Part shown: positions 33,411 to 53,304 of the stretch, piece after piece
Layout: every line of letters begins with the position of its first letter
How positions within the stretch are numbered: the stretch's first letter is position 1
From: Bacteroidia bacterium
Lineage (GTDB): Bacteria > Bacteroidota > Bacteroidia > AKYH767-A > OLB10
NCBI GenBank assembly: GCA_039931675.1
Contig: JBDTRM010000046.1
Location: forward strand, 310-64,309
Length of the DNA: 64,000 nucleotides
Direction of reading: 5' to 3'
Notes under the pieces: model-generated
What the model saw: the letters and a program-made list of their open reading frames with translations, nothing else
Told to the model about the DNA's origin: nothing
Databases searched by the model: none
Program-made: the position numbers and the translations under genes

Positions 33411-33450
33411 TTGTTTTAGAATATTTGGATTGGTAAAGTAGCGAATAAAT
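33411..33450 (-). repeat. array-2 element, degenerate copy without ORF
   Basis: + strand ttgttttagaatatttggattggtaaagtagcgaataaat; the ATG is lost. Confidence 0.6.
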
Positions 33451-33640
33451 GGGTGGATTGTTGCCTGCCTTCGCTCACCCAGCCCTTAAAGGGCACTGCC
33501 ACACAAGTGTTTAGCATCTTAATCATTCACTTTTGATTTTATTTCTTTTTTCTTTCCATCATAAAAAAAAATCATCATTAGAAACATAAGCGGGCTGAGC
33601 TCTTTAGCGCTCGGGGGAGCGCGGGAGTAAGAGTTATTTT

Positions 33641-33694
33641 TCAATTCCAGACTCATTTTATAAATATTTGGTTTACGCTAAGTAGGGAATAAAT
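33641..33694 (-). repeat. array-2 element copy b (only a 45-codon ORF follows it)
   Basis: + strand tcaattccagactcattttataaatatttggtttacgctaagtagggaataaat. Confidence 0.85.
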
Positions 33695-33791
33695 AGCTAC
33701 GGAACGAGCTACAAGGACACTTATGAAATTGCAGGAAAGAAACGGAACAGAAAAAGATTTGAGGTTTTTGTGAAAAGGGGTGGCACGGGTT

Positions 33792-37914: not shown

Positions 37915-38466
37915 CTAATTAAATAATACAATGAGTAATAAAATCACAGCTATAACAATCAATGTCACCTTAATTTCAAAACCGAAAAAAGGCTTAATAT
38001 CTGTATATGGGGCTGTTACCAAACCTAAATCTTTTGTGATTTTATCCACTGCTTTAGCGTCTTTACTTTTGAAGAAATAGGTTTGGGTAGGATAGGTGTC
38101 AAGCTGAACGCCAACATTTTTATCTTCACGGTAAAACTCAATATTCCTGCGCGAAAGCAACGCTTCAAATTTTGGTATATCTGCAATCCTCACTTGAAAT
38201 GAGTTGTCCTGATTTTTAAACTCAACTACATTTTTATAGTATGCTGCTTTCTCTTTAACTTCCTGTTCATAGAATTTTTCTTCCTCTGTTTCTTTCTGAT
38301 CTCTTTCTTCCAGCTTTTTATTAAGATCATCTGTCCATTTTCTTTCCGCAATAATCTGCTTTGCTGCAATTACTGCATCGGGTTGATAGTCGTCAGGTGA
38401 CAGAACAATTTTAAACAGTTCGTCTTTGTTGAAACTTTTATAGGTGTCGTAAAACTTTGTTGTCAT
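37915..38466 (-). CDS. hypothetical tail-anchored protein
   Basis: 183 aa with a C-terminal TM helix; its ATG overlaps the stop of the element-encoded uORF (ATGA). Confidence 0.55.
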   Translation of the reverse strand: MTTKFYDTYKSFNKDELFKIVLSPDDYQPDAVIAAKQIIAERKWTDDLNKKLEERDQKETEEEKFYEQEVKEKAAYYKNVVEFKNQDNSFQVRIADIPKFEALLSRRNIEFYREDKNVGVQLDTYPTQTYFFKSKDAKAVDKITKDLGLVTAPYTDIKPFFGFEIKVTLIVIAVILLLIVLFN

Positions 38467-38515
38467 AAAATACCTTCATAATTCATTTTAAAAATATTTG
38501 GTTCGCGAAAAGTAA
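38467..38515 (-). repeat. array-2 element copy c (distal end diverged)
   Basis: + strand aaaataccttcataattcattttaaaaatatttggttcgcgaaaagtaatc. Confidence 0.8.
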
Positions 38516-38529
38516 TCATATCAATTTTT

Positions 38530-39042
38530 TTAAACTTTGTTCAATGCGGAGAGAAATTGTTTAGCATCATGAACTATTTTGTCTTTATACAAGTCAACTT
38601 TTTTTAATTTCTCTTTGAGCATTTGGCTATCCCATTGATGGTATTCTGATGGTATTGGCAAATCGTCCAATTCACTTTCGTAACCGATACCAAGTTTAAC
38701 CGGAATAAAACTTTCTCCTGTATCAAAATAAAGTTCGCGAAGTTTACGTGTTGCTTCAACTAAATCAATTTTTTGTTCGATAATGTCTGTCAGGAGTTTT
38801 TTTGCTCTCCAAATATTAAACTCATCATTGTCAATGTATGGTTTTATTTTCTCTTTAATTTTTGAAAAACTGCCCCTTTGATTGTAGTCAAAAGAGATTA
38901 GGTCAAAATGTAGTTCGGCTTGTAAATCTGTTTCAAGAATATCTGAGTATTTATAAACCCATTGTTCAAAATCTTTGACAGATAAATCAAGGTTAAGGAG
39001 TTGAAAAAATATCTGCTTCGTAGTTTCGGTTAATTTGTTCAT
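38530..39042 (-). CDS. hypothetical 170-aa cytoplasmic protein, paralog A
   Basis: Near-identical to 42311..42823 over about 350 nt. Confidence 0.6.
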   Translation of the reverse strand: MNKLTETTKQIFFQLLNLDLSVKDFEQWVYKYSDILETDLQAELHFDLISFDYNQRGSFSKIKEKIKPYIDNDEFNIWRAKKLLTDIIEQKIDLVEATRKLRELYFDTGESFIPVKLGIGYESELDDLPIPSEYHQWDSQMLKEKLKKVDLYKDKIVHDAKQFLSALNKV

Positions 39043-39054
39043 TTAAAATTGATG

Positions 39055-39354
39055 TTAATCTCTCTTATGCCCGCAAGCAGCACAAAATGAAGCTTGGGGT
39101 GTTCGATATGGCTTGCCACAGTTTTCACAAGGCGGTCCGTATATAGAAATACGATGATGCATAATCGCATTTGGCTCCGTTTCTTCAAATCCCGTTATCT
39201 CAAAATAATAATCAAGTATTTTTTTAAATCGTTCTTGTCTATTATGCTTTAAGTTTTTAAATTCCTCAGAATAATAAAGACGAGCTTGTTCATATTCAGC
39301 TTCATCAAGCATCGGAATTTCCATTTTACATCGCCAGCACCAAAGAGCCTTCAT
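39055..39354 (-). CDS. small zinc-ribbon protein
   Basis: CWRC ... CENC ... CAAC cysteine pairs. Confidence 0.5.
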   Translation of the reverse strand: MKALWCWRCKMEIPMLDEAEYEQARLYYSEEFKNLKHNRQERFKKILDYYFEITGFEETEPNAIMHHRISIYGPPCENCGKPYRTPQASFCAACGHKRD

Positions 39355-39411
39355 TTATTTATTAATTTTATTTATTCAACTTGAGTATGGATAATTGCAA
39401 AAAGTAAAATT

Positions 39412-40065
39412 TTATTTAAGGGGCAATATTAACCGTTTGCCATTTGTGAAATTAACTACTATTTCAATTTCTTTTACTTCTGTCATTCCAATAGTATCAT
39501 CTTGAAATTCTTTTGGCAGAGAAATCATTTTAATTGCCTTATTGTTTTCTGAAAAAAGGTTTCTCTCTTTTTTTAAATTAAAAGCTCCTTTTGCGAATAA
39601 CTTTGTTTTATCCGAAGCAATCTTATAAATAAAAATATCTCTATTAGATTCTGCTGAACGTTCCATTCGATAACTATCCATTTTCATTTGACCATTTATC
39701 AATTCGCATATTGTTATTTCACCATCATTAGGACTTGAACATACAACTAAATAAATCGAATTACTGTCATTGTAAAAAAATTTCGGAACGTATTTATGAG
39801 GTGAACGGCAATCAAATTGATAACCAAGAATTGTATCCTTCCCTTGAATACTTACCTCCACGGTATAAAAACTGTCAACAACTATATATTTCACAAAAGT
39901 TCCTTCAGAAATTATAGTGTCCCATTTATACATGCATTGATAAATGCTGCTATCCCTTTCCTTTGCTTTTGCTGCTATATCATCATGCGATTTCTTCTCA
40001 ACGTTAGAACAACCTGAATACAAAAAAGCAAGAAATAAAATTCTTAATGAATAAACACGGAACAT
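39412..40065 (-). CDS. hypothetical lipoprotein
   Basis: Lipobox FLYSGC after MFRVYSLRILFLA. Confidence 0.5.
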   Translation of the reverse strand: MFRVYSLRILFLAFLYSGCSNVEKKSHDDIAAKAKERDSSIYQCMYKWDTIISEGTFVKYIVVDSFYTVEVSIQGKDTILGYQFDCRSPHKYVPKFFYNDSNSIYLVVCSSPNDGEITICELINGQMKMDSYRMERSAESNRDIFIYKIASDKTKLFAKGAFNLKKERNLFSENNKAIKMISLPKEFQDDTIGMTEVKEIEIVVNFTNGKRLILPLK

Positions 40066-40124
40066 AGAACCATTTTTCAATTCGATTCAAAAGTCATAAG
40101 TTAAATAAAAACATTCAAGTCTGA

Positions 40125-40586
40125 TTAATTTTTGACAGAATCGCATAATGATCTATTAAAAAGTACTATCTTATATAAATCTGGTGAATAATCTTCCTCT
40201 CTGTCAGGCTTTATTATTTTATTATTCCGATAAATATAAATCGAGTTAATATTTTCAAGTAGTAACGAATCTATATTATAACGTTCCACAAAGTATTTGT
40301 TGTTATGGAGAGGATTTTCTATTTGAAAAAAAACACTAATTGAATCTTCGAAATGGAAACATGCTCCGGAAATTATATCCATATCAAGAACCAAAGGTTT
40401 TATACAGTAATATTTAAACGGGATGTTATTTAATATGGAGTCACAGCGTCTATTTAAATTATCTGCAATATTAAAATCGTTAACAAAATAATTTTCAATT
40501 TTGGAAAACTTCAAAACCTTATTTTTTTGACCTGATGCGGATGCCAGGCAAAATGTAACAAGAGAAAGAAAAATAATATATTTCAT
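40125..40586 (-). CDS. hypothetical secreted protein
   Basis: Signal peptide MKYIIFLSLVTFCLASASG. Confidence 0.5.
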   Translation of the reverse strand: MKYIIFLSLVTFCLASASGQKNKVLKFSKIENYFVNDFNIADNLNRRCDSILNNIPFKYYCIKPLVLDMDIISGACFHFEDSISVFFQIENPLHNNKYFVERYNIDSLLLENINSIYIYRNNKIIKPDREEDYSPDLYKIVLFNRSLCDSVKN

Positions 40587-40637
40587 TTCGTTACTTCTTA
40601 AAATTCAATTCTCTTTATTATTGAAAAGTTAACTTGA

Positions 40638-40961
40638 TTAAAATTGCTCAAACTTTCTCAATTTAATTTTCCATTGTTTTTCTTTTTTAATGACATAAAC
40701 ACAAGCATTGTAGGAATACCAAACTATAACGACTGCATATTTCTTTTTTACTATTAAAGGATAACTGCACGAAACAAGTTCCCTAGGACGTTCTGTTTCT
40801 TCTGATAGCGTTGCTAATCGAAATGGAATATTTAAACGACAGTTTTCTAAGTTAATTTGATAAGATGTATTTGGCACAATGTCTTTAAACTTAAAATATT
40901 TTTTCATGTCTTTATATTCCAATTCAAAAAGTGTTTTTGTAACTTTAAACTGAGGTCGCAA
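40638..40961 (-). CDS. hypothetical protein
   Basis: 107-codon ORF, co-directional, non-overlapping. Confidence 0.4.
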   Translation of the reverse strand: MRPQFKVTKTLFELEYKDMKKYFKFKDIVPNTSYQINLENCRLNIPFRLATLSEETERPRELVSCSYPLIVKKKYAVVIVWYSYNACVYVIKKEKQWKIKLRKFEQF

Positions 40962-41099
40962 TTGTGTCTTGATTTTTAGACATACTTCAAATCCATATTT
41001 CCATTTGGTTTACCGGATTAAAACCCACCTTTAAAAATTTCTCTTCTAAATATAATTTTCATCCCTTATGTGCGTGAAGGTATTTCATAGTGCTTGTAT

Positions 41100-41735
41100 T
41101 TATCTTTTTATTGCGCGTTCGTTATTTAATTCGATTCGTAAATATCTTAATGTTTTATCCGTTGAACATTCATAGTCGTAACCGAATATTGTCACTTGAT
41201 TGTCCACGGTATTAACGCTGTCTATTGAATAGTTGTCTGGAATAAATTCTTCGTTTGTAATTATATATCCTTTGTCTGTGTCTATTATTATTGCTTTATG
41301 TGGTTGCCAGCAGTGTCCATTTGCATACGGTGGAGTGAGCCAATAGGTAATTACTGCGTCTGCATATTTATTATTGTTGAAGTCTGCAGTGAAAATTGTA
41401 TCGTAGGCAACGCTTAGTTTATTGTTGTCTGCTTCGGTCATTTTACCAAGGTCAGGTAAGTTGTCCGAATTATAACAGCCCTTCTTTTTAAAATGTTCAT
41501 ATAAGATTTTCTTAGCCAAACCATGAGTCAAGTTCAAACCATTATATTTTGAAACATTAAATTTCGAAACAGTAATTGTCGTGTCCAACTTTTGATATGT
41601 CATTGCAGCCAAATCATTATTGTTAGATGCTTTTGCATCGGCTAAATTGTCTTTGTTAGCTTGTTTAATTCTATTGTTACAAGAAGCAAGAAGCAAAAAG
41701 GTCAAGATTAAAGTATTTAATATCTGTCTTTTCAT
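41100..41735 (-). CDS. hypothetical lipoprotein
   Basis: Lipobox LLLASC after MKRQILNTLILTF. Confidence 0.5.
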   Translation of the reverse strand: MKRQILNTLILTFLLLASCNNRIKQANKDNLADAKASNNNDLAAMTYQKLDTTITVSKFNVSKYNGLNLTHGLAKKILYEHFKKKGCYNSDNLPDLGKMTEADNNKLSVAYDTIFTADFNNNKYADAVITYWLTPPYANGHCWQPHKAIIIDTDKGYIITNEEFIPDNYSIDSVNTVDNQVTIFGYDYECSTDKTLRYLRIELNNERAIKR

Positions 41736-41754
41736 AATGACGTACAACATTTTA

Positions 41755-42294
41755 TTACCTGCCGTTTTTCATTTCTTTTCTCCAGGTTTCCAGGTTAATT
41801 ATTGTATCATTTACGGTGTCGTAATATTTTATTTCAAAATTATCAGGATAAACAAAAAAGTTAAAGTGCGAAACAAAGTTTGTTCCGTTGTCCTCTCCGG
41901 CTTTCACCCAATAATATTTTTCGCCTGTTTCATTTGGTGTCTGGTAAATCCAAACTCTTAAATGTCGCGCTCCTTTCGTATGCCTTTCAATATAATTTGC
42001 TCGTTCTTTTACTTCGGGGAGAGCCAAGATAATTTCATATATTTTTTTCTCGTTTTTATCAGATTCAATTATTGAATCTGTTTTCAGGGTATCGCTTAGA
42101 TTTATATTTTTATTTATTCCACTGTAGGTCTTTGATAATACCTGTGTTGAATCACGTTTGGCTTCACTCACTTGTTGAATGTCTGATTTTTTATTTTGTC
42201 CGCATGAAATAAACAATATTGAAAAAATGATAGACAAGAATCTCATTCGTTCAATACTCAGAACAATTCTTTTAAAAAGTTTGTTTATCTGCAT
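41755..42294 (-). CDS. hypothetical lipoprotein
   Basis: Lipobox ILFISC; start trimmed to remove overlap with 42311..42823. Confidence 0.5.
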   Translation of the reverse strand: MQINKLFKRIVLSIERMRFLSIIFSILFISCGQNKKSDIQQVSEAKRDSTQVLSKTYSGINKNINLSDTLKTDSIIESDKNEKKIYEIILALPEVKERANYIERHTKGARHLRVWIYQTPNETGEKYYWVKAGEDNGTNFVSHFNFFVYPDNFEIKYYDTVNDTIINLETWRKEMKNGR

Positions 42295-42310
42295 GTTATG
42301 CCGTTTTTTT

Positions 42311-42823
42311 TTATTCTTTGTCCAATGTAGCAAGAAATTGTTTTGCATCTCGAATCAGTTTGTCTTTATACAGGTCAACCTTTTTTAATTTCTCTTTCAG
42401 CATTCTGCTGTCCCATTGATGATATTCTGAAGGTATTGGTAAATCATCCAATTCACTTTCGTAACCGATACCAAGTTTAACCGGAATAAAACTTTCTCCA
42501 GTATCAAAATAAAGTTCGCGAAGTTTACGTGTTGCTTCAACTAAATCAATTTTTTGTTCGATAATGTCTGTCAGGAGTTTTTTTGCTCTCCAAATATTAA
42601 ACTCATCATTGTCAATGTATGGTTTTATTTTCTCTTTAATTTTTGAAAAACTGCCCCTTTGATTGTAGTCAAAAGAGATTAGGTCAAAATGTAGTTCGGC
42701 TTGTAAATCTGTTTCAAGAATATCTGAGTATTTATAAACCCATTGTTCAAAATCTTTGACAGATAAATCAAGGTTAAGGAGTTGAAAAAATATCTGCTTC
42801 GTTATGTGACTCAAGTTGCTCAT
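42311..42823 (-). CDS. hypothetical 170-aa cytoplasmic protein, paralog B
   Basis: Duplicate of 38530..39042; first gene after element copy d. Confidence 0.6.
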   Translation of the reverse strand: MSNLSHITKQIFFQLLNLDLSVKDFEQWVYKYSDILETDLQAELHFDLISFDYNQRGSFSKIKEKIKPYIDNDEFNIWRAKKLLTDIIEQKIDLVEATRKLRELYFDTGESFIPVKLGIGYESELDDLPIPSEYHQWDSRMLKEKLKKVDLYKDKLIRDAKQFLATLDKE

Positions 42824-42851
42824 TTAAATTGCATCTGCAATATTTTACTTC

Positions 42852-42892
42852 CATTTTAAAAATATTTGGTTTGTGAAAAGTAGGGAATAAAT
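42852..42892 (-). repeat. array-2 element copy d
   Basis: + strand cattttaaaaatatttggtttgtgaaaagtagggaataaat; its distal end touches the stop codon of 42892..43314. Confidence 0.9.
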
Positions 42893-43314
42893 TAACCAGA
42901 ATTTCGAATCACATCTGCTAAATGAGATATATCTGCAATGGCATCGTCAATAATTTTCTTATATACTTCTTCTGTTAATTCTTTAATGTAATATTTCTCA
43001 TTGTAAAAATTACTATCCAAAATATACATTTCAAAAAGTGTTGGAATAATGATATAATTTTTTGTGGCTTCTTTTGTGACCATATCCCATTTTAAATTTC
43101 CTCTAAATGTCTTGATATTTCCTCTTAATTTATAATAAATAGGATTTCCCTTTTCAATGTTCTTAAATCTAAATCTAAGACATGGTGGACGAGCATACAC
43201 ATCATTAACTGCAAACATGGAAACCTTAGCTGTTTCAACTTCCTGTACGCTTTGCAAAGCTTCAAAGATTTCAGAATTAACTTTATCACTTACCAATTTC
43301 ATTTGCAATTCCAT
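42892..43314 (-). CDS. hypothetical cytoplasmic protein
   Basis: 140 aa; its ATG is the second ATG of the element consensus (ATGGAATTGCAA). Confidence 0.5.
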   Translation of the reverse strand: MELQMKLVSDKVNSEIFEALQSVQEVETAKVSMFAVNDVYARPPCLRFRFKNIEKGNPIYYKLRGNIKTFRGNLKWDMVTKEATKNYIIIPTLFEMYILDSNFYNEKYYIKELTEEVYKKIIDDAIADISHLADVIRNSG

Positions 43315-43360
43315 TTTCGTTTTTAAAATATTTGGTTTGCGAAAACCAAGGTAATAAACG
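43301..43360 (-). repeat. array-2 element copy e
   Basis: + strand catttgcaattccattttcgtttttaaaatatttggtttgcgaaaaccaaggtaataaac. Confidence 0.85.
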
Positions 43361-43377
43361 ACTTACTGAAATCCCTA

Positions 43378-45459
43378 TTATTTTGAATGACTATTATAAT
43401 CATCTATGTAACAGAATATGTCGTAAATCTCTCCATCACTTAAATTTTGTGCCGGCTGCTGCATCTTATTAAATTCTTCAAAAATTCTAACAGCATCTTT
43501 ATCCCCGCTTTTAATTAATGCCGAAGAATTTCTTGTCCATTTTATAATCCAATCCATAGAATATTTTTTAGTTGCGTCAGCCAGGCCTGGCCCTATTACT
43601 TGTTCTTTACCCTGACTGTGGCAAGACCGGCAATTGGAGTTGAAAAGATTTCTTGCTGGCAAAAGATCGTTGCGACATGGATTGGCAATGTGCCAAAGAC
43701 GAGCTAAGAATTTTATTTCTTCTCCATATTCCTTTAGCCATTGTTCTTCTTTATAAAACTTATCCATGAACTCAAGGTCTTTGCTTATCTTATTTTCCTT
43801 CGCATATTTTTCATAAGGCGTTATTGCTTCTTTTACTTTGTCTAAGGTTGATGTTGATAAAGACAAAGTAAATCTTGGTTCTGAACCTGTTATAAATTCT
43901 TTAACGGCTAATGAAGGCGTTTCTCCTTTATAACCAATGGCAATGGCAACTGCAGGTTTTTGCTTAGGCATCAGCATTTCTTTATCCTCATCATTGCCTG
44001 CATAAAATTCCAGGTTGTCGCTGGTGTTGAGCCTGTATAAACTTTTAATTGAAGTGTAAACAACATAAGTATAAACCCTGTCAAACTGTTTTCCATTTTC
44101 AACTGTGATTTCAAGAGGTTGCTTGCTCCAAACTTTAGGAAGTGTTCCGTTGTCAATGTTTATCCAGCCTGTTTCGGTCCATTCAAAACTGTAAGCTTCC
44201 ATCCTGTATTTTTCTCTTTTCCAAAGAAGCTTTTTATAATCATCAGCAACCTTGTCAAATGCTTCGTTTTTTTTATTCAATGCTTTCCTTACCTTATCAC
44301 TGTTTTTTTCTAACTCTGCTTTTACTTTTGAAAGTTGTTTTTCATAATATCCTTTCAGCAATGCTGAATATTTATTCGCTTCTTTAACATTGGTCAGTCG
44401 TTGCTGAGAGAATTGGTAAAAGTCATCAGCGCATTTGTCTCCATGCATCAGCTTTGCAGCCATGCTGTCGAGCTCATATAAATTTTTATTAAGATTGTTG
44501 ATGTAAGTTTCAAGTACTGCTTTGTTGCATGTTTTAAAAATCACTTTTAACCGCGCCTCAAACTCTCTTGTTGCAATAAGTGTGTTTTGATATTTTTCTG
44601 ATTTGATAACTTTAATTACCGCAGGGTCAATTCCATGTGGGTCAATTGAACCGGTAGTATCACATATCGCAGTATCTGATTTTATAACTACAAAAGATTC
44701 TTTCGTGTATTTTCCGTTCACAATCTTTTTGTTCTTGTTATAATATGGTTCGTTATAGTTGGTAGCTTGTTGTTGCTTTGCTTGTATTTGTGACACTGCA
44801 AGGCTATAATATAAACTGTCTGTTAACTCCTCTGTTGCAATCTTATGATTTTTAAAAGGCATTCCCTTGTCAACTTCATTCTGAAAACCTTCAGGAAGAA
44901 AGTCAAGCAAATTAATATCAACCGGAACAAGAAAATTATCTAACTCCTTTGGTTCCATCCAATTCATATTTCCTTTTTCATCTCTTACGCCTTTGTAAGC
45001 CATCATCCCCGGCTTTTTCTCATTTGTCGGAATTTCAATGTGTATTGGAATGTCTTTGTTGATTGACAGTTGCGCTCCGTTTGCAGTGGCATTAAAATAA
45101 ATCATTCCATCAGTTTCAAGCTGCTTTCCATTTGATGTAGTTGTAAGATTTGATAAAATCATTTGGTCAAGCGTAAGCGCTTCCGATAATTCTACTTTCA
45201 CATTCTCTTCCACAATTTCTCCTTTTGAATTTTTGAAACAGCCTTTCGGAAAAACTAAAACAGTTCCATTGTTTCCTTCAACTACATTGTCTTTTTTCGC
45301 GTCAATATCAAAAGACTCGCTCGGAACAATCGTGTTTTTGAAAGGGTCGTTAGGTTGAAGCTTAACGGTATCAGTCAAACTTGTTTTGTTGTTATTGCAA
45401 TTTGTAAGTATTAGCATTAAAAATATTGTTAAAATCGCATGTGTGATTTGTTTTGTCAT
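43378..45459 (-). CDS. large lipoprotein with C-terminal class I cytochrome c domain
   Basis: Lipobox LILTNC; C-terminal CRSCH haem motif followed by ...FNKMQQPAQNLSDGEIYDIFCYI. Confidence 0.65.
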   Translation of the reverse strand: MTKQITHAILTIFLMLILTNCNNNKTSLTDTVKLQPNDPFKNTIVPSESFDIDAKKDNVVEGNNGTVLVFPKGCFKNSKGEIVEENVKVELSEALTLDQMILSNLTTTSNGKQLETDGMIYFNATANGAQLSINKDIPIHIEIPTNEKKPGMMAYKGVRDEKGNMNWMEPKELDNFLVPVDINLLDFLPEGFQNEVDKGMPFKNHKIATEELTDSLYYSLAVSQIQAKQQQATNYNEPYYNKNKKIVNGKYTKESFVVIKSDTAICDTTGSIDPHGIDPAVIKVIKSEKYQNTLIATREFEARLKVIFKTCNKAVLETYINNLNKNLYELDSMAAKLMHGDKCADDFYQFSQQRLTNVKEANKYSALLKGYYEKQLSKVKAELEKNSDKVRKALNKKNEAFDKVADDYKKLLWKREKYRMEAYSFEWTETGWINIDNGTLPKVWSKQPLEITVENGKQFDRVYTYVVYTSIKSLYRLNTSDNLEFYAGNDEDKEMLMPKQKPAVAIAIGYKGETPSLAVKEFITGSEPRFTLSLSTSTLDKVKEAITPYEKYAKENKISKDLEFMDKFYKEEQWLKEYGEEIKFLARLWHIANPCRNDLLPARNLFNSNCRSCHSQGKEQVIGPGLADATKKYSMDWIIKWTRNSSALIKSGDKDAVRIFEEFNKMQQPAQNLSDGEIYDIFCYIDDYNSHSK

Positions 45460-45500
45460 GATGTTGTTTTAAAGTGTTTGATTCATACTAAAACGATTCC

Positions 45501-45555
45501 CTGATTGCAATATCATATTTCATTTTAAAAATATTTGGTTTGTGAAAAGTAAAAC
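45501..45555 (-). repeat. array-2 element copy f (encodes separate uORF MKYDIAIRESF)
   Basis: + strand ctgattgcaatatcatatttcattttaaaaatatttggtttgtgaaaagtaaaac. Confidence 0.85.
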
Positions 45556-45598
45556 TATGAATAAGAAGATGAATAAATTATTTACACTTCAATACATA

Positions 45599-47065
45599 TT
45601 ATTTACATTTTAAAGCGGCCTTCCATTTTCTTATATCATTTTTATAATCATCAAGCGAAAGATATGTCATACCTGCTGTTCCCAGGTTAACGCTGGATGG
45701 AATTTTTGTAATCCTACACATATCCGTTACAATTGAGTCTATAAAAAAACCATAATCTTTATGGTTCGCAAGTATGTCAAGTTTTTCGCAGGGTGACATA
45801 TTTTTGTATTTGTTCCATGATACATTTTCTCTATCAAAAAACATGTTATTAGTTTTATCAATAACATATTGATAACTGTTATAACCCGTTTCCAGGTTAA
45901 AGTAAAGAAATCCATATTTCTTTGAAAAAAGAAACTCAGAAATATAATATGACCCGTGACTTAACTCACCATAATCTGAGAAACTTACAAAATTGATATA
46001 ATCATCCAAAAATTTCTCTTTCAATACATAAGATACCATTATGCCGAATGGGTTATTTTTATAAAACAAACTATTCATTTTAATAGTGGGACCGATATCA
46101 TTCACTAAATAATATTGATACTTTTTTTTAAACATAAGAGACTCATAAATCACTGCGTTCCTTTTAACAATTAAAAAGTCGTCAGGTTGCGAAAAATATG
46201 AATGATCGTTTATTAAAACCTTGCACCTGAATCGCCCTGTTTCAAATTTATTTTCCTTTGATAAAATAATTTTCAAAGGAACATTTTGCCCGTCTTCATA
46301 GTATTTAGAAATTAATCTATAGTTGGTGGTATCACTCATTAGACACAAATCATTCTTTAATTTTGTTTCAGGCTCTTTGAGTAAAATCAAATGATTTAAT
46401 GTGTCAATAACCTGGGATATTGGCAATTCAGTATTTGCCCGTTTTGTTGGGTTTTTATAAGAAGTACTATAAGTCAAATCAGGGTTTTTAAAATATTTTC
46501 TCTTTTTTAATTCCTCCAACAGCCATTTATTTAGAATGGTTGAATGTGATTTTAATGTATCAATTATTGATGGCAGATGTTTTTCAATTGCTTTTTGCTC
46601 GTCCTCATATAGGTAAGTAATTTTATCACAGGCATAAACATGTACTTCAAAAATCCGATTTTTACTTTTAATAAATAAAACAGAAAATGGCAGCCAACTG
46701 CCACCCATATCGTATGAACATTCAATACAATGTTGACCATTTGAATGAACAAAACGAGGATTAAACACTAAAGTATCTGAGGCTGGGTTAAGGTAGCGTA
46801 ACATATTATTACTCTCCCAATAAGCGGTGTCATGTTGATTAATCGTATCAAAAGATAAATCCATTGAAGGAACATAGACATTTACCTGGCTTCTGTTTTC
46901 TAAAGCTTTACAGTATGAATTATAATGCAAAAGGTAGAGTTGCCACTTGATTTCATTTTTATAGGGAAGCAAGGTATCTACCGGAATATTCGGTCTATCA
47001 TTTTTGGTTAATGGCGCATTGCATGAAAACAGCAATACAATGACAACTACAATTCCATATTTCAT
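45599..47065 (-). CDS. hypothetical lipoprotein
   Basis: MKYGIVVVIVLLFSC: the element-encoded MKYGI is fused in frame to the lipoprotein signal peptide. Confidence 0.55.
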   Translation of the reverse strand: MKYGIVVVIVLLFSCNAPLTKNDRPNIPVDTLLPYKNEIKWQLYLLHYNSYCKALENRSQVNVYVPSMDLSFDTINQHDTAYWESNNMLRYLNPASDTLVFNPRFVHSNGQHCIECSYDMGGSWLPFSVLFIKSKNRIFEVHVYACDKITYLYEDEQKAIEKHLPSIIDTLKSHSTILNKWLLEELKKRKYFKNPDLTYSTSYKNPTKRANTELPISQVIDTLNHLILLKEPETKLKNDLCLMSDTTNYRLISKYYEDGQNVPLKIILSKENKFETGRFRCKVLINDHSYFSQPDDFLIVKRNAVIYESLMFKKKYQYYLVNDIGPTIKMNSLFYKNNPFGIMVSYVLKEKFLDDYINFVSFSDYGELSHGSYYISEFLFSKKYGFLYFNLETGYNSYQYVIDKTNNMFFDRENVSWNKYKNMSPCEKLDILANHKDYGFFIDSIVTDMCRITKIPSSVNLGTAGMTYLSLDDYKNDIRKWKAALKCK

Positions 47066-47103
47066 TTTTAAAATATTTGGTTTGCGAAAAGTAGGTAATA
47101 AAT
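47051..47103 (-). repeat. array-2 element copy g
   Basis: + strand aattccatatttcatttttaaaatatttggtttgcgaaaagtaggtaataaat. Confidence 0.9.
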
Positions 47104-47169
47104 AATCTGCAATATTGCGCTATAATTTAAAGTGAGCTATTATTCGGTTATCTATTCAAAAAGTCGAAT

Positions 47170-47337
47170 ATGAAAAAAAAGGATTTGATAATTTATGTAC
47201 CCATTTTTATAATTTTTTTACTTGAAATTTTTTGGAAAGATGGAATGGTTACAATATTTGGACATTTTGGATTAGTTATTTTGTACAGTGTCTCTGCATT
47301 GATCCTCATGATTAAAGTGATTTTTTTTAGAAAATAA
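47170..47337 (+). CDS. possible 55-aa two-TM mini-protein
   Basis: MKKKDLIIYVPIFIIFLLEIFWKDGMVTIFGHFGLVILYSVSALILMIKVIFFRK, found by hand; its stop is 1 nt before the next ATG. Confidence 0.3.
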   Translation: MKKKDLIIYVPIFIIFLLEIFWKDGMVTIFGHFGLVILYSVSALILMIKVIFFRK

Positions 47338-47338
47338 A

Positions 47339-47560
47339 ATGAGAACATTCGAACGCATAATTTTTACTTATTGTTATAAAATAACCAAAGTTTTTTTTAT
47401 ATGTATGCTTTTTATAATTAGCGTTATCGACTTATGGCCATTTAATTTAGAAAAAATGCCTCCGATCATAGCTTACCTTTTTTGGCTTTCATTAGGATTA
47501 GTGTTAGGTTGCTATTGGGCAATAGAATCTGTCAAATATTTAAATAAATATAAGGACTAA
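47339..47560 (+). CDS. possible 73-aa two-TM mini-protein
   Basis: ORF track entry; two hydrophobic helices; one of only two + strand ORFs inside array 2. Confidence 0.35.
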   Translation: MRTFERIIFTYCYKITKVFFICMLFIISVIDLWPFNLEKMPPIIAYLFWLSLGLVLGCYWAIESVKYLNKYKD

Positions 47561-47590
47561 AACGCATTCCACAGCCAGGATACTGAGGGG

Positions 47591-48259
47591 TTACCAATAG
47601 ACATTGATCTCGAATGCATTTTCAAAAGTATAATCTGTCTTTTGGATTTCTGTTATGAAATTACCTGTTAAAATGAATTTATTTTGGAAATTATAAATGC
47701 GGAAATTATTAAAATGATTATTTAATATTTTTAATTCATCCATATCTCTCGTTTCAAAAATCTTATTGTAAATAACTTTATTACCAGCTTTTGTTTGTAT
47801 GATGAATTCTCCCTGGAAACTTTGCAATGTATCCTTATCAACATTAACAGGTTTAGGATTCTCTTTAATATTCTTAAAAGAAAAAATCAGGTAATTCTTA
47901 AATCCCAAAGTTGGGGAAACAACCTCACTAAGATTAAATGCCTTCAAGAATGACTTGAATTCAACTGAATCAATTATATAGTCTCTGAAGTTACCATCGT
48001 ATATTTTAAAATCATTGGTGGAATCAGCATTTAACTTAAAAAAATAATTATTAAACATATAAAACATTTGAGTTTTATTATTTACAAAATCATGTAGATA
48101 GTATAAATTTTGCTTTCTTATATCATTTAAGGGGTCATTAAGCTTATACAATCCCATGTTCCCCTCTGGTGTAAAGTACGCTACATTACCCTCAAAGGTT
48201 TCCTGACAACCATTAAAAATTAATATTGAAAAGAATATTGCGAAATAGTAGTGTTTCAT
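47591..48259 (-). CDS. hypothetical lipoprotein
   Basis: Lipobox LIFNGC after the internal Met MKHYYFAIFFSI. Confidence 0.5.
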   Translation of the reverse strand: MKHYYFAIFFSILIFNGCQETFEGNVAYFTPEGNMGLYKLNDPLNDIRKQNLYYLHDFVNNKTQMFYMFNNYFFKLNADSTNDFKIYDGNFRDYIIDSVEFKSFLKAFNLSEVVSPTLGFKNYLIFSFKNIKENPKPVNVDKDTLQSFQGEFIIQTKAGNKVIYNKIFETRDMDELKILNNHFNNFRIYNFQNKFILTGNFITEIQKTDYTFENAFEINVYW

Positions 48260-48261
48260 AA

Positions 48262-48579
48262 TCAGATAGTTTTTATATGAAAATGCAGGAGACACATTAT
48301 TGTTAAAACGCAATTCATCACAAGAGTTAAGGCAAGTATTATTTTATAGAACAAAGATTCTGTAATCGAGGTCCTTTTTAAAAACATCTGATAAAAAAAC
48401 CACATGACGAGGTAGAATATATTTAATCCAACCAAGTAAATCAATGCATCAGGAATCAAGAAGAAAAAATAGATTGGTTTGCTTAAAAAATACATAACAA
48501 CCAAACCAATAAAACCTGTTGATATGGCAAAAAGATTAAAAGATAATCTCTTGTTTCTTAAGTAATCAGTTATTCCCAT
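48262..48579 (-). CDS. hypothetical small multi-TM protein
   Basis: 105 aa with three hydrophobic helices. Confidence 0.45.
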   Translation of the reverse strand: MGITDYLRNKRLSFNLFAISTGFIGLVVMYFLSKPIYFFFLIPDALIYLVGLNIFYLVMWFFYQMFLKRTSITESLFYKIILALTLVMNCVLTIMCLLHFHIKTI

Positions 48580-48624
48580 TATTCATTTCAAAAATATTTG
48601 GTTTGCTAAAAGTAGGAAATAAAA
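48571..48624 (-). repeat. array-2 element copy h
   Basis: + strand attcccattattcatttcaaaaatatttggtttgctaaaagtaggaaataaaaat. Confidence 0.85.
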
Positions 48625-48681
48625 ATACTGAAGCGATAAGAGTTATAAATGTATTGTGATTGGCAGAATTAAATTTTAATA

Positions 48682-49653
48682 TCAGCGAACAACAAATGCA
48701 GGAACAACATTAAAATTTCCGTCTCTTTCAAAGTAATATAATGAATCATTTTCAAACTCTTTTACTTTCATAAAAAAATGTCCCGTCCAAAATTCTTTAT
48801 CCAAAGGACTAAATTCAAAAGTAACTGTGCCGCTATAATTTTGGCCAAAAACAGTCTCTCTCATTTGAATAAAATACGTATTTCTTAACTGCGTTCTGCA
48901 TTCATCAATTTTACTGTACTCTGCAGTTCCGGAAGTGTATTGCAGTGGAAACACATTAAGCAAGGTATCCGCAACTGTCCTATAGCCTATAAAACCTATC
49001 CCGAAATACTGATCGAATTTAGTTTGATAAATAATTGTCACAAAACATTTTAAACACGAGGTGTCATAAATAATTGTGTCAACCTTGATATTTGCAATGC
49101 TATCAAGAAAGTCTTTAACAAATCTTCCGAAATAATTTTCATTTGGGTTAAATTCATTTATTGGATAGTTTTTTCTTGTTAAGGTATCAAGGTAATTTTT
49201 AAACGCATGTTCAATTTCTGTTTTATCTTTTGAGTAAGAAAGACAAATTGTGTGTTTGTTACTCGAATTTCTTATGGCTTCTTCAACATCTTTTTCCGAC
49301 TTCTCAATTATATCTCTATAAGACATATCAGGGAACCTGCTATGAAAAGGGAAGTTATTTATTCCGAAAGTGGTAAAAACAGTTATTGATAAAACAGAAA
49401 CCAAAATTATAAATGGCCTTGAAATTTTTCGGAAAAGCATTATTAAAAGTTTTGTGGAACCGAATAAAATGAAAATCTCAATTATCCAAAAAGCCCAAAA
49501 GAACATTAGACCATCGTCCCTCGTGACAAAAATTAAAAGAAAATAAATGATTGGGAAAAACGGAATATATATAAAGTATAGAATAGGAATTGTAAGGAGA
49601 ACAGAATTCAAAAATGCTGTTAGTACAAGAATAATATTACGCAGTCTGTTCAA
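48682..49653 (-). CDS. hypothetical membrane protein
   Basis: 323 aa with an N-terminal multi-TM region. The TTG start sits at the position of the element ATG. Confidence 0.5.
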   Translation of the reverse strand: MNRLRNIILVLTAFLNSVLLTIPILYFIYIPFFPIIYFLLIFVTRDDGLMFFWAFWIIEIFILFGSTKLLIMLFRKISRPFIILVSVLSITVFTTFGINNFPFHSRFPDMSYRDIIEKSEKDVEEAIRNSSNKHTICLSYSKDKTEIEHAFKNYLDTLTRKNYPINEFNPNENYFGRFVKDFLDSIANIKVDTIIYDTSCLKCFVTIIYQTKFDQYFGIGFIGYRTVADTLLNVFPLQYTSGTAEYSKIDECRTQLRNTYFIQMRETVFGQNYSGTVTFEFSPLDKEFWTGHFFMKVKEFENDSLYYFERDGNFNVVPAFVVR

Positions 49654-49692
49654 TTTTTAAATATTTTGTTTTGCGAAAAGTAGGGAATAAAT
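49651..49692 (-). repeat. array-2 element copy i
   Basis: + strand caatttttaaatattttgttttgcgaaaagtagggaataaat. Confidence 0.85.
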
Positions 49693-49768
49693 GGGTGATT
49701 AAAATATTGAGGAAGAAGGAAGCAATCAATATTTCAGAGGCACTTTCTACTTGATAATATGATCAAAT

Positions 49769-50269
49769 TCAATTTTTAAATTCAATTTCCACTACCGTTG
49801 AACCATTTAATATTTCTTTAGTTGTTCCATCTTCATTCATTTGTCTTGCTGGAATCCATCTCGGCATTTTTCTAATAATTCTAAGAGCTTCTTTGGAGCA
49901 ATCAGGGCACTTACGAAGCGGAGTAATTAAAATTGCTTTCGTTATTCTTCCCTTTTTATTTATCTCTAATTTAAAATCAACTGTGCCGTTTAGGTTAAAC
50001 ATTTTGACCTGTTCAGGTATTTTAATGTTTGCAGCAATAAATTTATTCAAAGAATCTTCACCCCCTGCAAAGTCAGGACCAAGGAATGTGCTATCTATTC
50101 CAACTCCTACATCATAAAATACTGTGTCACTGCTCTTATGCATATTTGAATCAGAAACAGGATTAATAGTATCCGCTGATAAATTACTATTGCTTTTTTT
50201 ACTTCTATCTTTTTCGGTACATGAAAAAAAGAAGAGACAACAAATAAAAATCAGTTGAAGTTTTTTCAT
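49769..50269 (-). CDS. lipoprotein with TonB C-terminal-like domain
   Basis: Lipobox FFFSC; GGEDSLNKFIAANIKIP...NGTVDFKLEINKKGRITKA...RKMPRWIPA pattern. Confidence 0.55.
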   Translation of the reverse strand: MKKLQLIFICCLFFFSCTEKDRSKKSNSNLSADTINPVSDSNMHKSSDTVFYDVGVGIDSTFLGPDFAGGEDSLNKFIAANIKIPEQVKMFNLNGTVDFKLEINKKGRITKAILITPLRKCPDCSKEALRIIRKMPRWIPARQMNEDGTTKEILNGSTVVEIEFKN

Positions 50270-50313
50270 CTTTTATTTTAAAAATATTTGGTTTATAAAA
50301 GTAGAGAATAAAA
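50270..50313 (-). repeat. array-2 element copy j
   Basis: + strand cttttattttaaaaatatttggtttataaaagtagagaataaaaat. Confidence 0.8.
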
Positions 50314-50337
50314 ATATGCACATAAAGAACTATCGGG

Positions 50338-50985
50338 TCACATGCTGAATAAGCGAGTTGTTTTGTAGATGCTCTTAATTTTCAAAAAGTCTGAAAAACA
50401 ATAATAACAAAGACTCTTAACATAAATCCCATCAGAATTAATTCTGGTGATAGTTATTAAATTATCAGTTATTCCAGCATTGGCACTGGCACACTTCATA
50501 TTTGGAATGTTTTCAGCTATTGAAATATAATTTTCATAATCAAGTTTTGATATTTTAACTTTTTTATTTTCTAATGGAAGTCCTTTAAAGTATCCATTTT
50601 TTGAATTAAATATCACGAGATCATAGAGAATATTATGACCACCACCTTCCACAGATGTTTCAACAATATCAATTCGTAAAAGGCTATCACCCTTATTCTT
50701 TTCAATAAAGTCAGCAATCCAAATTGATATCCCAAATTGAACAATGCTATCTGAAATGATTGAGTCAAAGCTACATTCAACCCCTTTTTTATACACTTCC
50801 CTTGAATCATTCGAATCTAAACCGATACATTTTAGTTCATTGAGTGAAGTAAGTTTTTTTTCTTTCCAATCTTTAAGGAACAAAGTTTTATCAAAATTAA
50901 TTGGCTTCAGATTTATCTTATGGCCCGATTTATTGCAACTAATAGAGCAGCATGAAATCAAAATAGAAATGAAGATGGCTTTCAT
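50338..50985 (-). CDS. hypothetical lipoprotein
   Basis: MKAIFISILISCCSISC; the element-encoded 20-codon uORF stops 2 nt before this ATG. Confidence 0.5.
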   Translation of the reverse strand: MKAIFISILISCCSISCNKSGHKINLKPINFDKTLFLKDWKEKKLTSLNELKCIGLDSNDSREVYKKGVECSFDSIISDSIVQFGISIWIADFIEKNKGDSLLRIDIVETSVEGGGHNILYDLVIFNSKNGYFKGLPLENKKVKISKLDYENYISIAENIPNMKCASANAGITDNLITITRINSDGIYVKSLCYYCFSDFLKIKSIYKTTRLFSM

Positions 50986-51030
50986 ATTTAGTTTACAAGT
51001 GTAAAACAAGCACTGATTTGATACTTTTTA

Positions 51031-51080
51031 CTGACAATTCCATAATTCATTTTAAAAATATTCGGATCGAAACGCACAAG
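51031..51080 (-). repeat. array-2 element copy k (distal half diverged)
   Basis: + strand tgacaattccataattcattttaaaaatattcggatcgaaacgcacaag. Confidence 0.75.
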
Positions 51081-51115
51081 ATTGTTTCAAGAATGTATTT
51101 GATGATAACTTCAAC

Positions 51116-51616
51116 TTATTTTATTATTTCTGGTTTTGGATTAGTCTTTAAATATTTTTCAAGTTTAATTGTATCGCTTATAAAATCAGTTGTAACGTAT
51201 CTTAAATGATTAAAAGTAATACCATAATATTCTATGTAATCAACAACATCATGAGTGCCTATACCTCCCTCCCTGTAACAAATTAAATAAACAGAATCAG
51301 ATAGACATACGAAGTTCAATATCCTGTCGAATTTGTAATCACCTAAAGAGGCATCCGAAAAGTTAATCTGTTTAATATCTGAACTGTCACCTATTTTAAA
51401 GGGAGAGTTGTCTAAAATGCTTAAACTATCAATGATAAATATTGGAATTGCAGATTTATCTACAGAATAAGTATATCGCTTTGATATTAAAAATTCTGAT
51501 ACCCGATTTTGTATAGTATTGGCTACTTCTGATTTGGGATTAATACAATCCGAAAAAAGTGATATTAAAAGAATTGCACCTAATACTTTCATAAGCTTTT
51601 CAATTCCATACTGCAT
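51116..51616 (-). CDS. hypothetical lipoprotein
   Basis: MQYGIEKL (element-encoded) fused in frame to MKVLGAILLISLFSDC. Confidence 0.5.
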   Translation of the reverse strand: MQYGIEKLMKVLGAILLISLFSDCINPKSEVANTIQNRVSEFLISKRYTYSVDKSAIPIFIIDSLSILDNSPFKIGDSSDIKQINFSDASLGDYKFDRILNFVCLSDSVYLICYREGGIGTHDVVDYIEYYGITFNHLRYVTTDFISDTIKLEKYLKTNPKPEIIK

Positions 51617-52149
51617 TTTAAAAATATTTGGTTTGCGAAAAGTAGGGAATAAGAGAAACTATTTAGTTTGAAAAAAGACATCTTCACCTGGGCACCAGTT
51701 ACAACTCCAAAAATGACTGACTTAAACTTATCTTCTTCAATGTTTGAATCGGTTACATAATGACCGTAAGTATTTTTTGCTAATTGATAATTTGTATAAT
51801 AGTCAAAGACAAATTTTTTGGGTACATCCCAGTCAAGGACAAATCTCTTTTTAAAATAATTCATGGAATCAGTTAAGTAAGGTAATTCCAAAATATCCAC
51901 TCCAGCATTAATTTGTAATGCCAAAATTGGCCTTATAAAAAGTGTTGTGTCAATAAGTAGTTTTCCCCTTGAAATTGATTTAACAATAGTATCATTTTTG
52001 TAAATAAATTTAATAACATCGTTATTGGAAATTGAAATTGTATCTGTGTTTTTAATAATAATTATATCAACTTCAGGAAAATGTTGCTGTGCATATAAAT
52101 TAGTTGTCAATGCCATAATCAAAACAAAAAAAATAATTCTCACATTCAT
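51589..52149 (-). CDS. hypothetical secreted protein
   Basis: Signal peptide LTTNLYAQQ; its last ~20 codons read through element copy l. Confidence 0.5.
   Translation of the reverse strand: MNVRIIFFVLIMALTTNLYAQQHFPEVDIIIIKNTDTISISNNDVIKFIYKNDTIVKSISRGKLLIDTTLFIRPILALQINAGVDILELPYLTDSMNYFKKRFVLDWDVPKKFVFDYYTNYQLAKNTYGHYVTDSNIEEDKFKSVIFGVVTGAQVKMSFFKLNSFSYSLLFANQIFLKCSMELKSL
51599..51652 (-). repeat. array-2 element copy l
   Basis: + strand ttcaattccatactgcattttaaaaatatttggtttgcgaaaagtagggaataag; lies inside the 3' end of ORF 51589..52149. Confidence 0.9.
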
Positions 52150-52190
52150 TTTTAAATCTTCACAGTTTTATTCCTAATTCAATTTTTATC

Positions 52191-52230
52191 CATTTAAAAT
52201 ATTCAGTATCCCGAATTACGCACAATGCAT
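52191..52230 (-). repeat. array-2 element, degenerate copy
   Basis: + strand catttaaaatattcagtatcccgaattacgcac; resembles the diverged copy k. Confidence 0.4.
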
Positions 52231-52319
52231 CAGACGGCAAATGTATAGCACACATTTAAGCTAGTTATTGTGCATGTATAAAGTTTTTAAAAGAAGTGGC
52301 TGTGAGCCGGGTTACCCCA

Positions 52320-53201
52320 TTATTCTTCAATATATTTCCCAATGTCTGTCGAAAATTTATAATGTCGAGTTTTAATTTGTTTATCATCTACCTCTAAAGT
52401 GCTTAAGTTATAATGAGATTTCGGTTTTACTATAGTCGTATATGAAGGAACCTTATTATTTTCCAAATAGGTTTCACTAAATCCATAGTAAAAGGAAAGT
52501 ATTTCTGTTAAAGCTGAATTTTCTAATCCATTGATGTAATACCGCTCTATTGAAAAGAGACTTTCCCCTCCTTCTAAGTAGCCTCCATTTCCTCCAAGGC
52601 CATAAGATAAACTCAAACAAGTCCATTTGTCTCCTATTTCTTTTAATTCAATTTTTGCTGGAATAAGTCCGGTAGATTTATAAGTACCAAAATATCCTAT
52701 TTCATCAATTTCCTTTTGAAATTTATATAGCTCCCACTTATTGTATTTAGTCTTATAGAATAATGCAACCCCAATTGGAACTCCACAAAAGTGACATCCT
52801 GTAGGCTCAACCTTTTTGTCGTATTCGTGCATCTGAAAATTATAGGTTGAGAAAATAGCAACACCACATTCTGTATTCTTAGTGTCTTTGAAAAACATTA
52901 TTGTGTCTAAAGAAGTATGGAATTGATTGTCATAAGAAAGTGGAATTGGTAATGAAGTCAAATCATAGTAATTTGGTTTCCACACAGCCATTTCCAAACT
53001 ATCAATTTTGGGATTGTCGAAAAGTCGAAGTAATAGTTCTCGCTTGTCAAGTGTTCTAAATGAAATTGCCTCTGTTCGGTTTGTAGCTTCAATATTAGTG
53101 CTTAGGTTATTCTTTCCTGTATTACTTTCCTTTTGTCTTTCACAACCAGGAAAAAATATAGCTAAAACAAATATAGTTAGTAACAAGGTACAATGTGTCA
53201 T
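52320..53201 (-). CDS. hypothetical lipoprotein
   Basis: Lipobox IFFPGC; its ATG overlaps the stop of the element-encoded uORF MNYPIAISEMYNRQ (ATGA). Confidence 0.55.
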   Translation of the reverse strand: MTHCTLLLTIFVLAIFFPGCERQKESNTGKNNLSTNIEATNRTEAISFRTLDKRELLLRLFDNPKIDSLEMAVWKPNYYDLTSLPIPLSYDNQFHTSLDTIMFFKDTKNTECGVAIFSTYNFQMHEYDKKVEPTGCHFCGVPIGVALFYKTKYNKWELYKFQKEIDEIGYFGTYKSTGLIPAKIELKEIGDKWTCLSLSYGLGGNGGYLEGGESLFSIERYYINGLENSALTEILSFYYGFSETYLENNKVPSYTTIVKPKSHYNLSTLEVDDKQIKTRHYKFSTDIGKYIEE

Positions 53202-53220
53202 TGTCTATTATACATTTCGC

Positions 53221-53280
53221 TGATTGCAATTGGATAATTCATTTTAAAAATATTCGGTTTGCGAAAAGTAGGGAGTAAAT
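53221..53280 (-). repeat. array-2 element copy m (promoter-proximal end of array)
   Basis: + strand tgattgcaattggataattcattttaaaaatattcggtttgcgaaaagtagggagtaaat. Confidence 0.9.
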
Positions 53281-53304
53281 GCCTGGGTTGGATAGGAGAA
53301 AATA

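Follow-up and report, generated by a model that had tools for sequence, protein, structure and literature searches.

A direct repeat in a low-GC gene array of an uncultured Bacteroidia bacterium and its possible role as a portable leader-plus-start module

Introduction

In class 1 integrons, the conserved site attI1 carries a short open reading frame (ORF-11 or ORF-18) that can be coupled to cassettes lacking an initiation region (Hanau-Bercot 2002; see the review PMC8876359). In Bacteroidales, gene arrays known as recombinase-associated acquired interbacterial defence arrays (rAID-1; Ross 2019; PMC12247911) are recognized by having, at the 5′ end, an XerD-like tyrosine recombinase that is at least 44% identical to BF9343_RS08045, followed by at least two co-directional downstream genes with a GC content of 41% or less (Ross 2019, bioRxiv 10.1101/471110). 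Further hallmarks of these arrays are a conserved motif between the genes and gene products that are orphan immunity proteins. Here, we describe a direct repeat that stands before unrelated small genes in a low-GC array of a Bacteroidia bacterium, and that may provide these genes with a leader and a start codon. The DNA in question is a stretch of 64 kb (positions 310 to 64,309 of contig JBDTRM010000046.1, assembly GCA_039931675.1), referred to below as the window. A first-pass annotation of this window had proposed that the conserved ATG of the repeat is a portable start codon, which is either fused in frame to a gene or opens a short upstream open reading frame (uORF) placed for termination and reinitiation. 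We examine both parts of this proposal and weigh them against other explanations for the repeat.

Results

The array extends over 33.3–53.3 kb of the minus strand and contains approximately 27 co-oriented small genes with a GC content of 0.29–0.33, compared to 0.37–0.41 in the flanking regions. The repeat, hereafter the element, is about 55 nt long (consensus CATTTATTCCCTACTTTTCGCAAACCAAATATTTTTAAAATGAATTATGGAATTG) and is present in 13 good copies (23.5–53.3 kb) and two degenerate ones, with all 15 on the minus strand. A search with the 28-nt pattern TTTTCGCAAACCAAATATTTTTAAAATG returned nine matches at up to three mismatches, again all on the minus strand, with 0 expected from 100 shuffles. 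A looser search for the core and an nhmmer profile raised the count from nine to 13 good copies. The repeat itself is clearly more than chance.

Conservation reaches its maximum in a near-invariant block of 24 nt from −19 to +4 (CAAACCAAATATTTTTAAAATGAA; the first base of the start triplet is position 0), where most columns are identical in 12 or 13 of the 13 copies, and falls away to either side. The 5′ flank (−40 to −20) is moderately conserved. Similarity in the 3′ flank is weak and ends at a limit that varies between +5 and +25, a pattern consistent with junctions that differ from copy to copy or with tracts of gene conversion, but not with a single fixed point of crossover. The start position is occupied by ATG in ten of the good copies and by ATA, TTG and ACG in one copy each. 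With the sole exception of the copy at 33656, good copies sit 0–66 nt upstream of a gene start. The individual copies are listed below, with start triplets given as the plus-strand coordinate of their first base.

53227..53282, minus strand: copy 1; ATG 53242; 14-codon uORF overlapping the gene ATG at 53201
51601..51656, minus strand: copy 2, the sole perfect match to the core; ATG 51616, in frame with the gene
51035..51072, minus strand: copy 3, 3′ half only; ATG 51050; 20-codon uORF
50261..50315, minus strand: copy 4; ATA at 50276; a lipoprotein gene begins at +7 (ATG 50269)
49640..49694, minus strand: copy 5; TTG 49653, opening a membrane ORF of 323 residues (48682–49653)
48571..48626, minus strand: copy 6; ATG 48586; 6-codon uORF overlapping an ORF that begins at the second ATG, 48579
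47050..47105, minus strand: copy 7; ATG 47065, predicted start codon of a lipoprotein gene of 488 residues (45599–47065)
45508..45578, minus strand: copy 8; ATG 45523; 11-codon uORF before a lipoprotein gene of 693 residues (ATG 45459)
43306..43361, minus strand: copy 9; ACG at 43320; gene 42892–43314 begins at ATG 43314
42838..42894, minus strand: copy 10; ATG 42854; 26-codon uORF overlapping, out of frame, the homology-verified start 42823
38471..38527, minus strand: copy 11; ATG 38486; 7-codon uORF overlapping the homology-verified ATG 38466
33642..33696, minus strand: copy 12, at the array end; ATG 33656, opening a 45-codon orphan ORF with no gene after it
33400..33452, minus strand: degenerate copy (33413); CAA in place of ATG; 154 nt upstream of the start of a TPR gene
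23520..23575, minus strand: outlying copy, 10 kb past the array; ATG 23535; 8-codon uORF before ORF 22977–23507
22922, minus strand: degenerate copy

At some junctions the start position of the element coincides with the start of a long ORF. Gene 45599–47065 begins MKYGIVVVIVLLFSC, and the element ATG is the only start that yields an n-region, an h-region and a lipobox. The TTG at 49653 opens the 323-codon membrane ORF 48682–49653, which has a frame that is closed one codon upstream and an initial stretch of 109 codons without a stop in DNA of 30% GC. Since both ORFs begin exactly at position 0, this position should lie on the mRNA and be used as a start in these two cases. ATG 51616 reads MQYGIEKLMKVLG in frame with 51116–51616 and precedes the MKVLG lipoprotein start (51592) by eight codons. 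Genes 48579 and 50269 use a second ATG at +7, and gene 42892–43314 also uses the second ATG, its first codon being ACG. The first-pass annotation had correctly identified this last case as well as the in-frame cases at 47065 and 51616. Judging from these sequences, the element would provide a portable start position that is shared by unrelated ORFs and that serves as the start codon of two or three genes. We infer that the AUG is present on the mRNA and used by ribosomes.

Six cassettes open with textbook lipoprotein signal peptides, and alignments with 11 homologues each from other Bacteroidota show that the N-terminal methionines of 42311–42823 and 37915–38466 match the predicted ATGs.

The copy at 51616 is also crossed in another frame by ORF 51589–52149 (minus strand, 186 residues), the last 21 codons of which are encoded by the repeat. 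The TGA of this ORF overlaps the MKVLG start at 51592 as ATGA, and a canonical −7 box (TACATTTG) is found 88 nt upstream of its start. At the other end of the array, a perfect GC hairpin, GCGCTC-CCCC-GAGCGC, follows the orphan ORF of copy 33656 (33519–33696, minus strand) in DNA of otherwise 30% GC, and 240 nt further along there is a decayed element copy.

The ATG of the element is preceded by A at −1, −2, −3, −12 and −13 (in most copies for −3, −12 and −13), whereas the cassettes' own starts have one or two of the four favoured adenines; the start at 38466, for example, has U at −3. In Flavobacterium johnsoniae, adenines at these positions were measured to raise initiation, Shine–Dalgarno (SD) sequences are ignored by the ribosomes, and extra AUGs near starts are normally depleted (Baez 2019, PMC6847099). 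RNAalifold predicted 0 consensus pairs over 12 copies of the element. Folding of single copies gave z-scores between −1.6 and +1.6, mostly positive, with most copies folding worse than their own shuffles. In predicted accessibility the element AUG could not be told apart from the starts that belong to the cassettes, and it resembles ordinary gene starts. No Rfam covariance model matched the region from 22 to 56 kb at E ≤ 1.

To identify promoters we used the Bacteroidota −7 box TAHHTTTG, with a transcription start site (TSS) 4–5 nt downstream. Two stretches of the element come close to this motif, TACTTTTC at −28 to −21 and TATTTTTA at −10 to −3, but both are without the near-invariant G. A canonical box (TATTTTTG at −10 to −3) occurs in copy 48586 only. 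The 5′ half of the element, CATTTATTCCCTACTTTTCG, resembles canonical promoters of relatives, such as CATTTATTTACTACTTTTG in locus L055, and a promoter in this half may place the TSS about 16 nt upstream of the AUG. A scan for sigma-70 promoters and terminators was uninformative, and no terminators lie between cassettes. In two loci of relatives, L055 (4579, minus strand) and L014 (7778, minus strand), canonical −7 boxes (TACTTTTG) are located only 4–6 nt before an ATG. This spacing implies that environmental Bacteroidales would make leaderless or nearly leaderless mRNAs.

At seven copies the element ATG opens a uORF of 6–26 codons that ends in cassette-specific sequence. The distances from uORF stop to gene start are −4, −4, +1, +2, +28, −14 and −50 nt. 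MNYEGIL* (38463–38486, stop included) overlaps ATG 38466 with its TGA as ATGA; this overlap had been reported in the first-pass annotation with a coordinate (38464) that is one base off. An ATGA overlap is also formed by MNYPIAISEMYNRQ* (53198–53242) and ATG 53201. The 20-codon uORF from 51050 ends with TAA at 50990–50988, 2 nt before ATG 50985, the 8-codon uORF of copy 23535 stops 1 nt before GTG 23507, and the stop of MKYDIAIRESF* is 28 nt ahead of ATG 45459. The two remaining uORFs run past the gene start out of frame, by 14 nt (48586) and by 50 nt (42854), and should hinder translation or compete with the true start. All ten sequence details given in the first-pass annotation, including the overlap at 53201 and the gaps before 50985 and 45459, could be reproduced to within one base.

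In four of the seven cases, uORF stop and gene start are no more than 4 nt apart. With the element (to +16) and the gene held fixed and the spacer shuffled, the probability of finding at least four of seven this close is 0.11, or 0.08 if random frame jitter is added. As an empirical background we considered the 39 other genes of the window, before which 10 of 45 upstream ATGs (22%) stop within 4 nt; measured against this rate, four of seven corresponds to P ≈ 0.05. The cause of this is geometric: little distance separates the upstream ATG from the gene, and in AT-rich spacer a stop turns up roughly once per 12 codons. Furthermore, an ATG-to-ATG distance of 2 mod 3 combined with an A at +4 of the gene forces the uORF to stop at the gene's ATGA. 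The second codon begins with A in 24 of the 39 other genes, and all three cassettes with a 2-mod-3 distance are among those with close uORFs. By these measures, uORF stops are no nearer to gene starts than chance allows.

These results divide the original proposal. The shared start position stands, as seen at 47065, at 49653 and, in frame, at 51616, but the hand-off of ribosomes from element to cassette lacks statistical support. The idea that the uORFs are placed for termination and reinitiation is not supported, given the P values of 0.08–0.11, the 22% background, the heterogeneous gaps and the out-of-frame overlap at the verified start 42823. Moreover, two cassette families have homologues elsewhere whose leaders are their own and contain no such uORF.

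Most cassettes belong to no known family in Pfam or NCBIfam. At least six array genes encode lipoproteins, a MORN_2 (YwqK-like) domain is found only in 36283–36996, and the other domain matches among array genes are one TonB_C and one cytochrome c. No homologue was found for the fused protein of 488 residues (45599–47065). Two stretches of the array, 42.8–38.5 kb and 38.4–33.7 kb, are free of the element. Two paralogous genes of 170 residues each, 38530–39042 and 42311–42823 (both minus strand), share a 340-nt centre that is 100% identical, while their first seven codons and their 3′ ends have diverged. This pattern suggests that gene conversion has recently been active within the array. Since the element precedes one of these paralogues and follows the other, it is not part of the gene unit. 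The 170-residue family is widespread in Bacteroidota; its AlphaFold model is all-alpha (pLDDT 94) and no PDB entry matched this fold.

Upstream of the array lie a toxin–antitoxin (TA)-like pair, an aminotransferase gene, a gene for a 696-residue protein of no assigned function, an HNH protein gene and ffh. The TA-like pair, which heads the array (53305–54013, minus strand), combines a TIGR02574 addiction-module component with an HTH_3 (HigA-like) gene. A perfect SD sequence (AAGGAGGT) precedes the ATG of the HTH gene by 5 nt; this is uncommon in Bacteroidota and may point to a recent foreign origin. The HNH/NUMOD4 homing-endonuclease-like gene (57732–58388, minus strand) encodes a lysine-rich N-terminus and lies between ffh and the gene for the 696-residue protein. 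Within the array, a segment of 485 nt (47106–47590) has no minus-strand gene and contains two short plus-strand ORFs (47170–47337 and 47339–47560), one of them a prediction of the Logan gene caller. The host encodes proteins of the type IX secretion system (T9SS) type, and its closest aminotransferase homologues are 73–75% identical.

Pfam scans of the window ORFs of at least 90 residues outside the first 7.6 kb identified no recombinase or integrase domain. This search stayed within the 64-kb window and took in the 10 kb ahead of the array; the 78.8-kb contig has about 14.8 kb more outside the window. We also considered whether the copies might reflect orphan toxins or homology arms of the contact-dependent inhibition (CDI)/Rhs type. 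This reading was rejected, as the in-frame open stretch upstream of the ATG amounts to just 1–41 codons.

The window contains a second repeat family (array 1), with eight copies of about 60 nt on the plus strand (10759–17036; ...AAGCCTGTTGCATTGATGAAAGTATTGATAGATTTGTTGGG), each 22–66 nt upstream of a small gene; on the minus strand, degenerate copies are found near 34470 and 35050. A Bacteroidota −7 box within this repeat is perfect (TAGATTTG), and the repeat's own ATG (MKVLIDLLG), being upstream of the box, cannot be translated. Array 1 looks like the product of a propagated promoter module, and it warns against reading meaning into any ATG of an AT-rich repeat.

Searches with ATG-free patterns of the element gave no match in 185,579 species genomes, no match in IMG/VR, and a single chance match in unrelated, higher-GC DNA in the JGI metagenomes. 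The only other DNA of this organism that we found is a pair of identical Logan contigs from SRR26386622. An nhmmer search over 80 loci of relatives that encode a homologue of the aminotransferase (65–75% identical) did not detect the element, and these loci showed no comparable repeat arrays. Homologues of two cassette families occur elsewhere in Bacteroidota, mostly in ordinary contexts. Two loci contain co-oriented clusters of small genes with an intergenic repeat of their own in three copies: L084 (1–3375; repeat of 143–170 nt) and L094/L095 (8870–10690; repeat of 45–105 nt). One repeat copy in L094 ends directly at the ATG of a lipoprotein gene, and gene callers begin ORFs inside the repeat. 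We did not accept the L094 repeat as a homologue of the element, given that their similarity is marginal (P = 0.04–0.16).

Discussion

We favour, with a probability of about one half, a reading in which the element is a leader-plus-start module that is specific to this lineage and has been propagated within a low-GC accessory array similar to rAID arrays. Such a module would consist of an unstructured, A/U-rich leader that ends in an AUG of good Bacteroidota initiation context, perhaps with a weak, non-canonical promoter in its 5′ half. It would have been copied before unrelated small genes in the accessory array of this uncultured Bacteroidales bacterium, and heterologous ORFs would have been attached to it anywhere from 0 to 66 nt behind the AUG. 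A junction inside an ORF or in frame would turn the module AUG into the start of the gene, as predicted for 47065, 49653 and possibly 51616. In-frame fusions may be tolerated because the extra residues fall in the cleaved signal peptide of a lipoprotein. If instead the gene keeps its own start, the module AUG would open a short uORF, ended by the first stop in the AT-rich spacer or by the gene's ATGA. The uORFs would then be by-products of the junctions and not a selected, uniform device, although reinitiation is plausible for the four cassettes with gaps of −4, −4, +1 and +2 nt. The module appears to be separable from the genes it precedes, because of its placement around the paralogue pair and because homologues of two cassette families function without it.

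Several observations weigh against this interpretation. The ATG is conserved no better than the 20 bases that surround it. The 24 invariant bases exceed the needs of a leader and point to recent copying, to gene conversion, or to a binding site on DNA or RNA. The element is known from one genome only. Finally, neither of its −7-like boxes is canonical, and if TATTTTTA were the real box, transcription would begin at +2/+3 and would not include the AUG.

Four other explanations have to be considered, some of which are partly compatible with one another. The last of these objections leads directly to the possibility that the element is a promoter only. In this case the core would be a sigma-A-like promoter with the −7-like box TATTTTTA at −10 to −3 and transcripts that begin at about +2/+3, the ATG and the uORFs would be absent from the mRNA, and the cassettes would start at the +7 ATG or at their own start after ordinary leaders of 5–63 nt. 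This box is the best-conserved part of the element, copy 48586 carries the canonical form TATTTTTG before a gene that uses the +7 ATG, and +6/+7 starts are found in three genes. Leaders of these lengths would be nothing unusual, given a mean of 33 nt in F. johnsoniae, very short leaders are found in the relatives L055 and L014, and the sister repeat of array 1 has its perfect −7 box downstream of its own untranslated ATG. Nevertheless, we regard this explanation as unlikely, since the near-invariant G of TAHHTTTG is missing in 12 of 13 copies and a transcript of this kind could not yield the products of the long ORFs at 47065 and 49653, which begin exactly at position 0. Furthermore, the sequence CAAACC, 18 nt upstream of the predicted TSS, is not AT-rich, whereas the TACTTTTC box has CATTTATT at this distance. 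We assign a similarly low likelihood to a broader view, by which the array repeats one SD-independent initiation site per junction (an A-rich, unstructured AUG, possibly with its own weak promoter) that acts as the start itself or as a feeder for reinitiation. The element would then be a per-cassette, SD-free counterpart of integron ORF-11 and may mark the junctions of a recombinase-driven cassette system of Bacteroidota.

Selected translational coupling, in which the element AUG loads ribosomes and uORF stops are held beside the cassette start for reinitiation, is more doubtful still. It would explain why four uORFs stop within 4 nt of a gene start and why the own starts of those cassettes are poorer in adenine context than the element AUG (38466 with U at −3), and attI1 ORF-11/ORF-18 provides a precedent. 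However, this closeness is not significant in either simulation or against the rate at other genes, three of the seven uORFs miss the gene start more widely (by 28 nt on the near side, by 14 and 50 nt on the far side), frame together with an A at +4 forces the ATGA overlaps, and the same gene families are expressed elsewhere without the element. Least probable in our estimate is a recombination site of an integron- or rAID-like cassette system, with a recombinase encoded outside the window and an ATG that is incidental. The co-oriented low-GC array with its repeated intergenic motif, as in rAID-1, is consistent with this idea, as are the TA-like pair at the array head, the 24-nt invariant core, which has the typical size of a recombinase core site, an inverted repeat of 8 bp (ATTCCCTA..N31..TATGGAAT) that is imperfect and occurs in part of the copies, and the presence of intergenic repeats in other Bacteroidota contigs with homologous cassettes. 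Yet no recombinase was found within the 64 kb, including the 10 kb upstream of the array, folding of the element copies revealed no attC-like hairpin, and the core is without dyad symmetry. The limits of similarity are variable and not sharp, the duplicated cassette does not have the element as one of its ends, and long stretches of the array (42.8–38.5 and 38.4–33.7 kb) are without copies.

The leader-plus-start module, if real, would matter for a practical question, namely how newly acquired genes become translatable in Bacteroidota, which initiate translation without SD pairing. A leader with an AUG that can be copied would be a natural answer. It would also offer a compact tool for expressing genes in Bacteroidota, and the conserved intergenic motifs of rAID-like arrays, of which little is understood, would gain a translational aspect. 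The case is built on a single uncultured genome, and engineered termination–reinitiation is not statistically supported.

Comparison with described systems shows which parts of this arrangement have parallels. Reused or "mobile" promoters (Nijveen, Matus-Garcia, van Passel 2012, PMC3575422) share with the element the presence of at least 50 near-identical nucleotides before non-homologous genes of one genome. Unlike these dispersed promoters, our repeat continues across the start codon into the first codons, is concentrated in a single array, and has no canonical promoter motif. The A at −3, −12 and −13 and the low structure correspond to the SD-independent, Kozak-like initiation described by Baez 2019 (PMC6847099). 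In that study, however, the initiation regions are gene-specific and extra AUGs are depleted, whereas here an extra AUG is kept 7–65 nt upstream of the real starts.

The locus has a strong intergenic motif, and a conserved intergenic motif is also part of the description of rAID-1. It has one or two MORN_2/YwqK-like genes among array genes that mostly have no family, and its approximately 27 co-directional minus-strand ORFs, with GC contents of 0.29–0.33, lie below the 41% limit used for these arrays. Unlike rAID-1, it has no XerD-like recombinase at its 5′ end or elsewhere in the window, and the host belongs to an environmental lineage, not to one from the gut.

The device that had been proposed as unusual is not new in kind, given the precedent of attI1 ORF-11/ORF-18 (PMC8876359). 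As with ORF-11, a short ORF has its own initiation region in a conserved element and a stop that is supplied by the cassette, as in the seven uORFs described here, and some cassettes are fused to upstream start codons in both systems. Unlike the element, ORF-11 uses an SD sequence and occurs once per integron, at the first cassette; here, an A-rich site, predicted to be SD-independent, is present at about 13 junctions. The window also differs from an integron in that it has no IntI integrase and no attC hairpins. The nearest mechanistic precedent for the element is attI1 ORF-11, and the nearest architecture is that of rAID-1.

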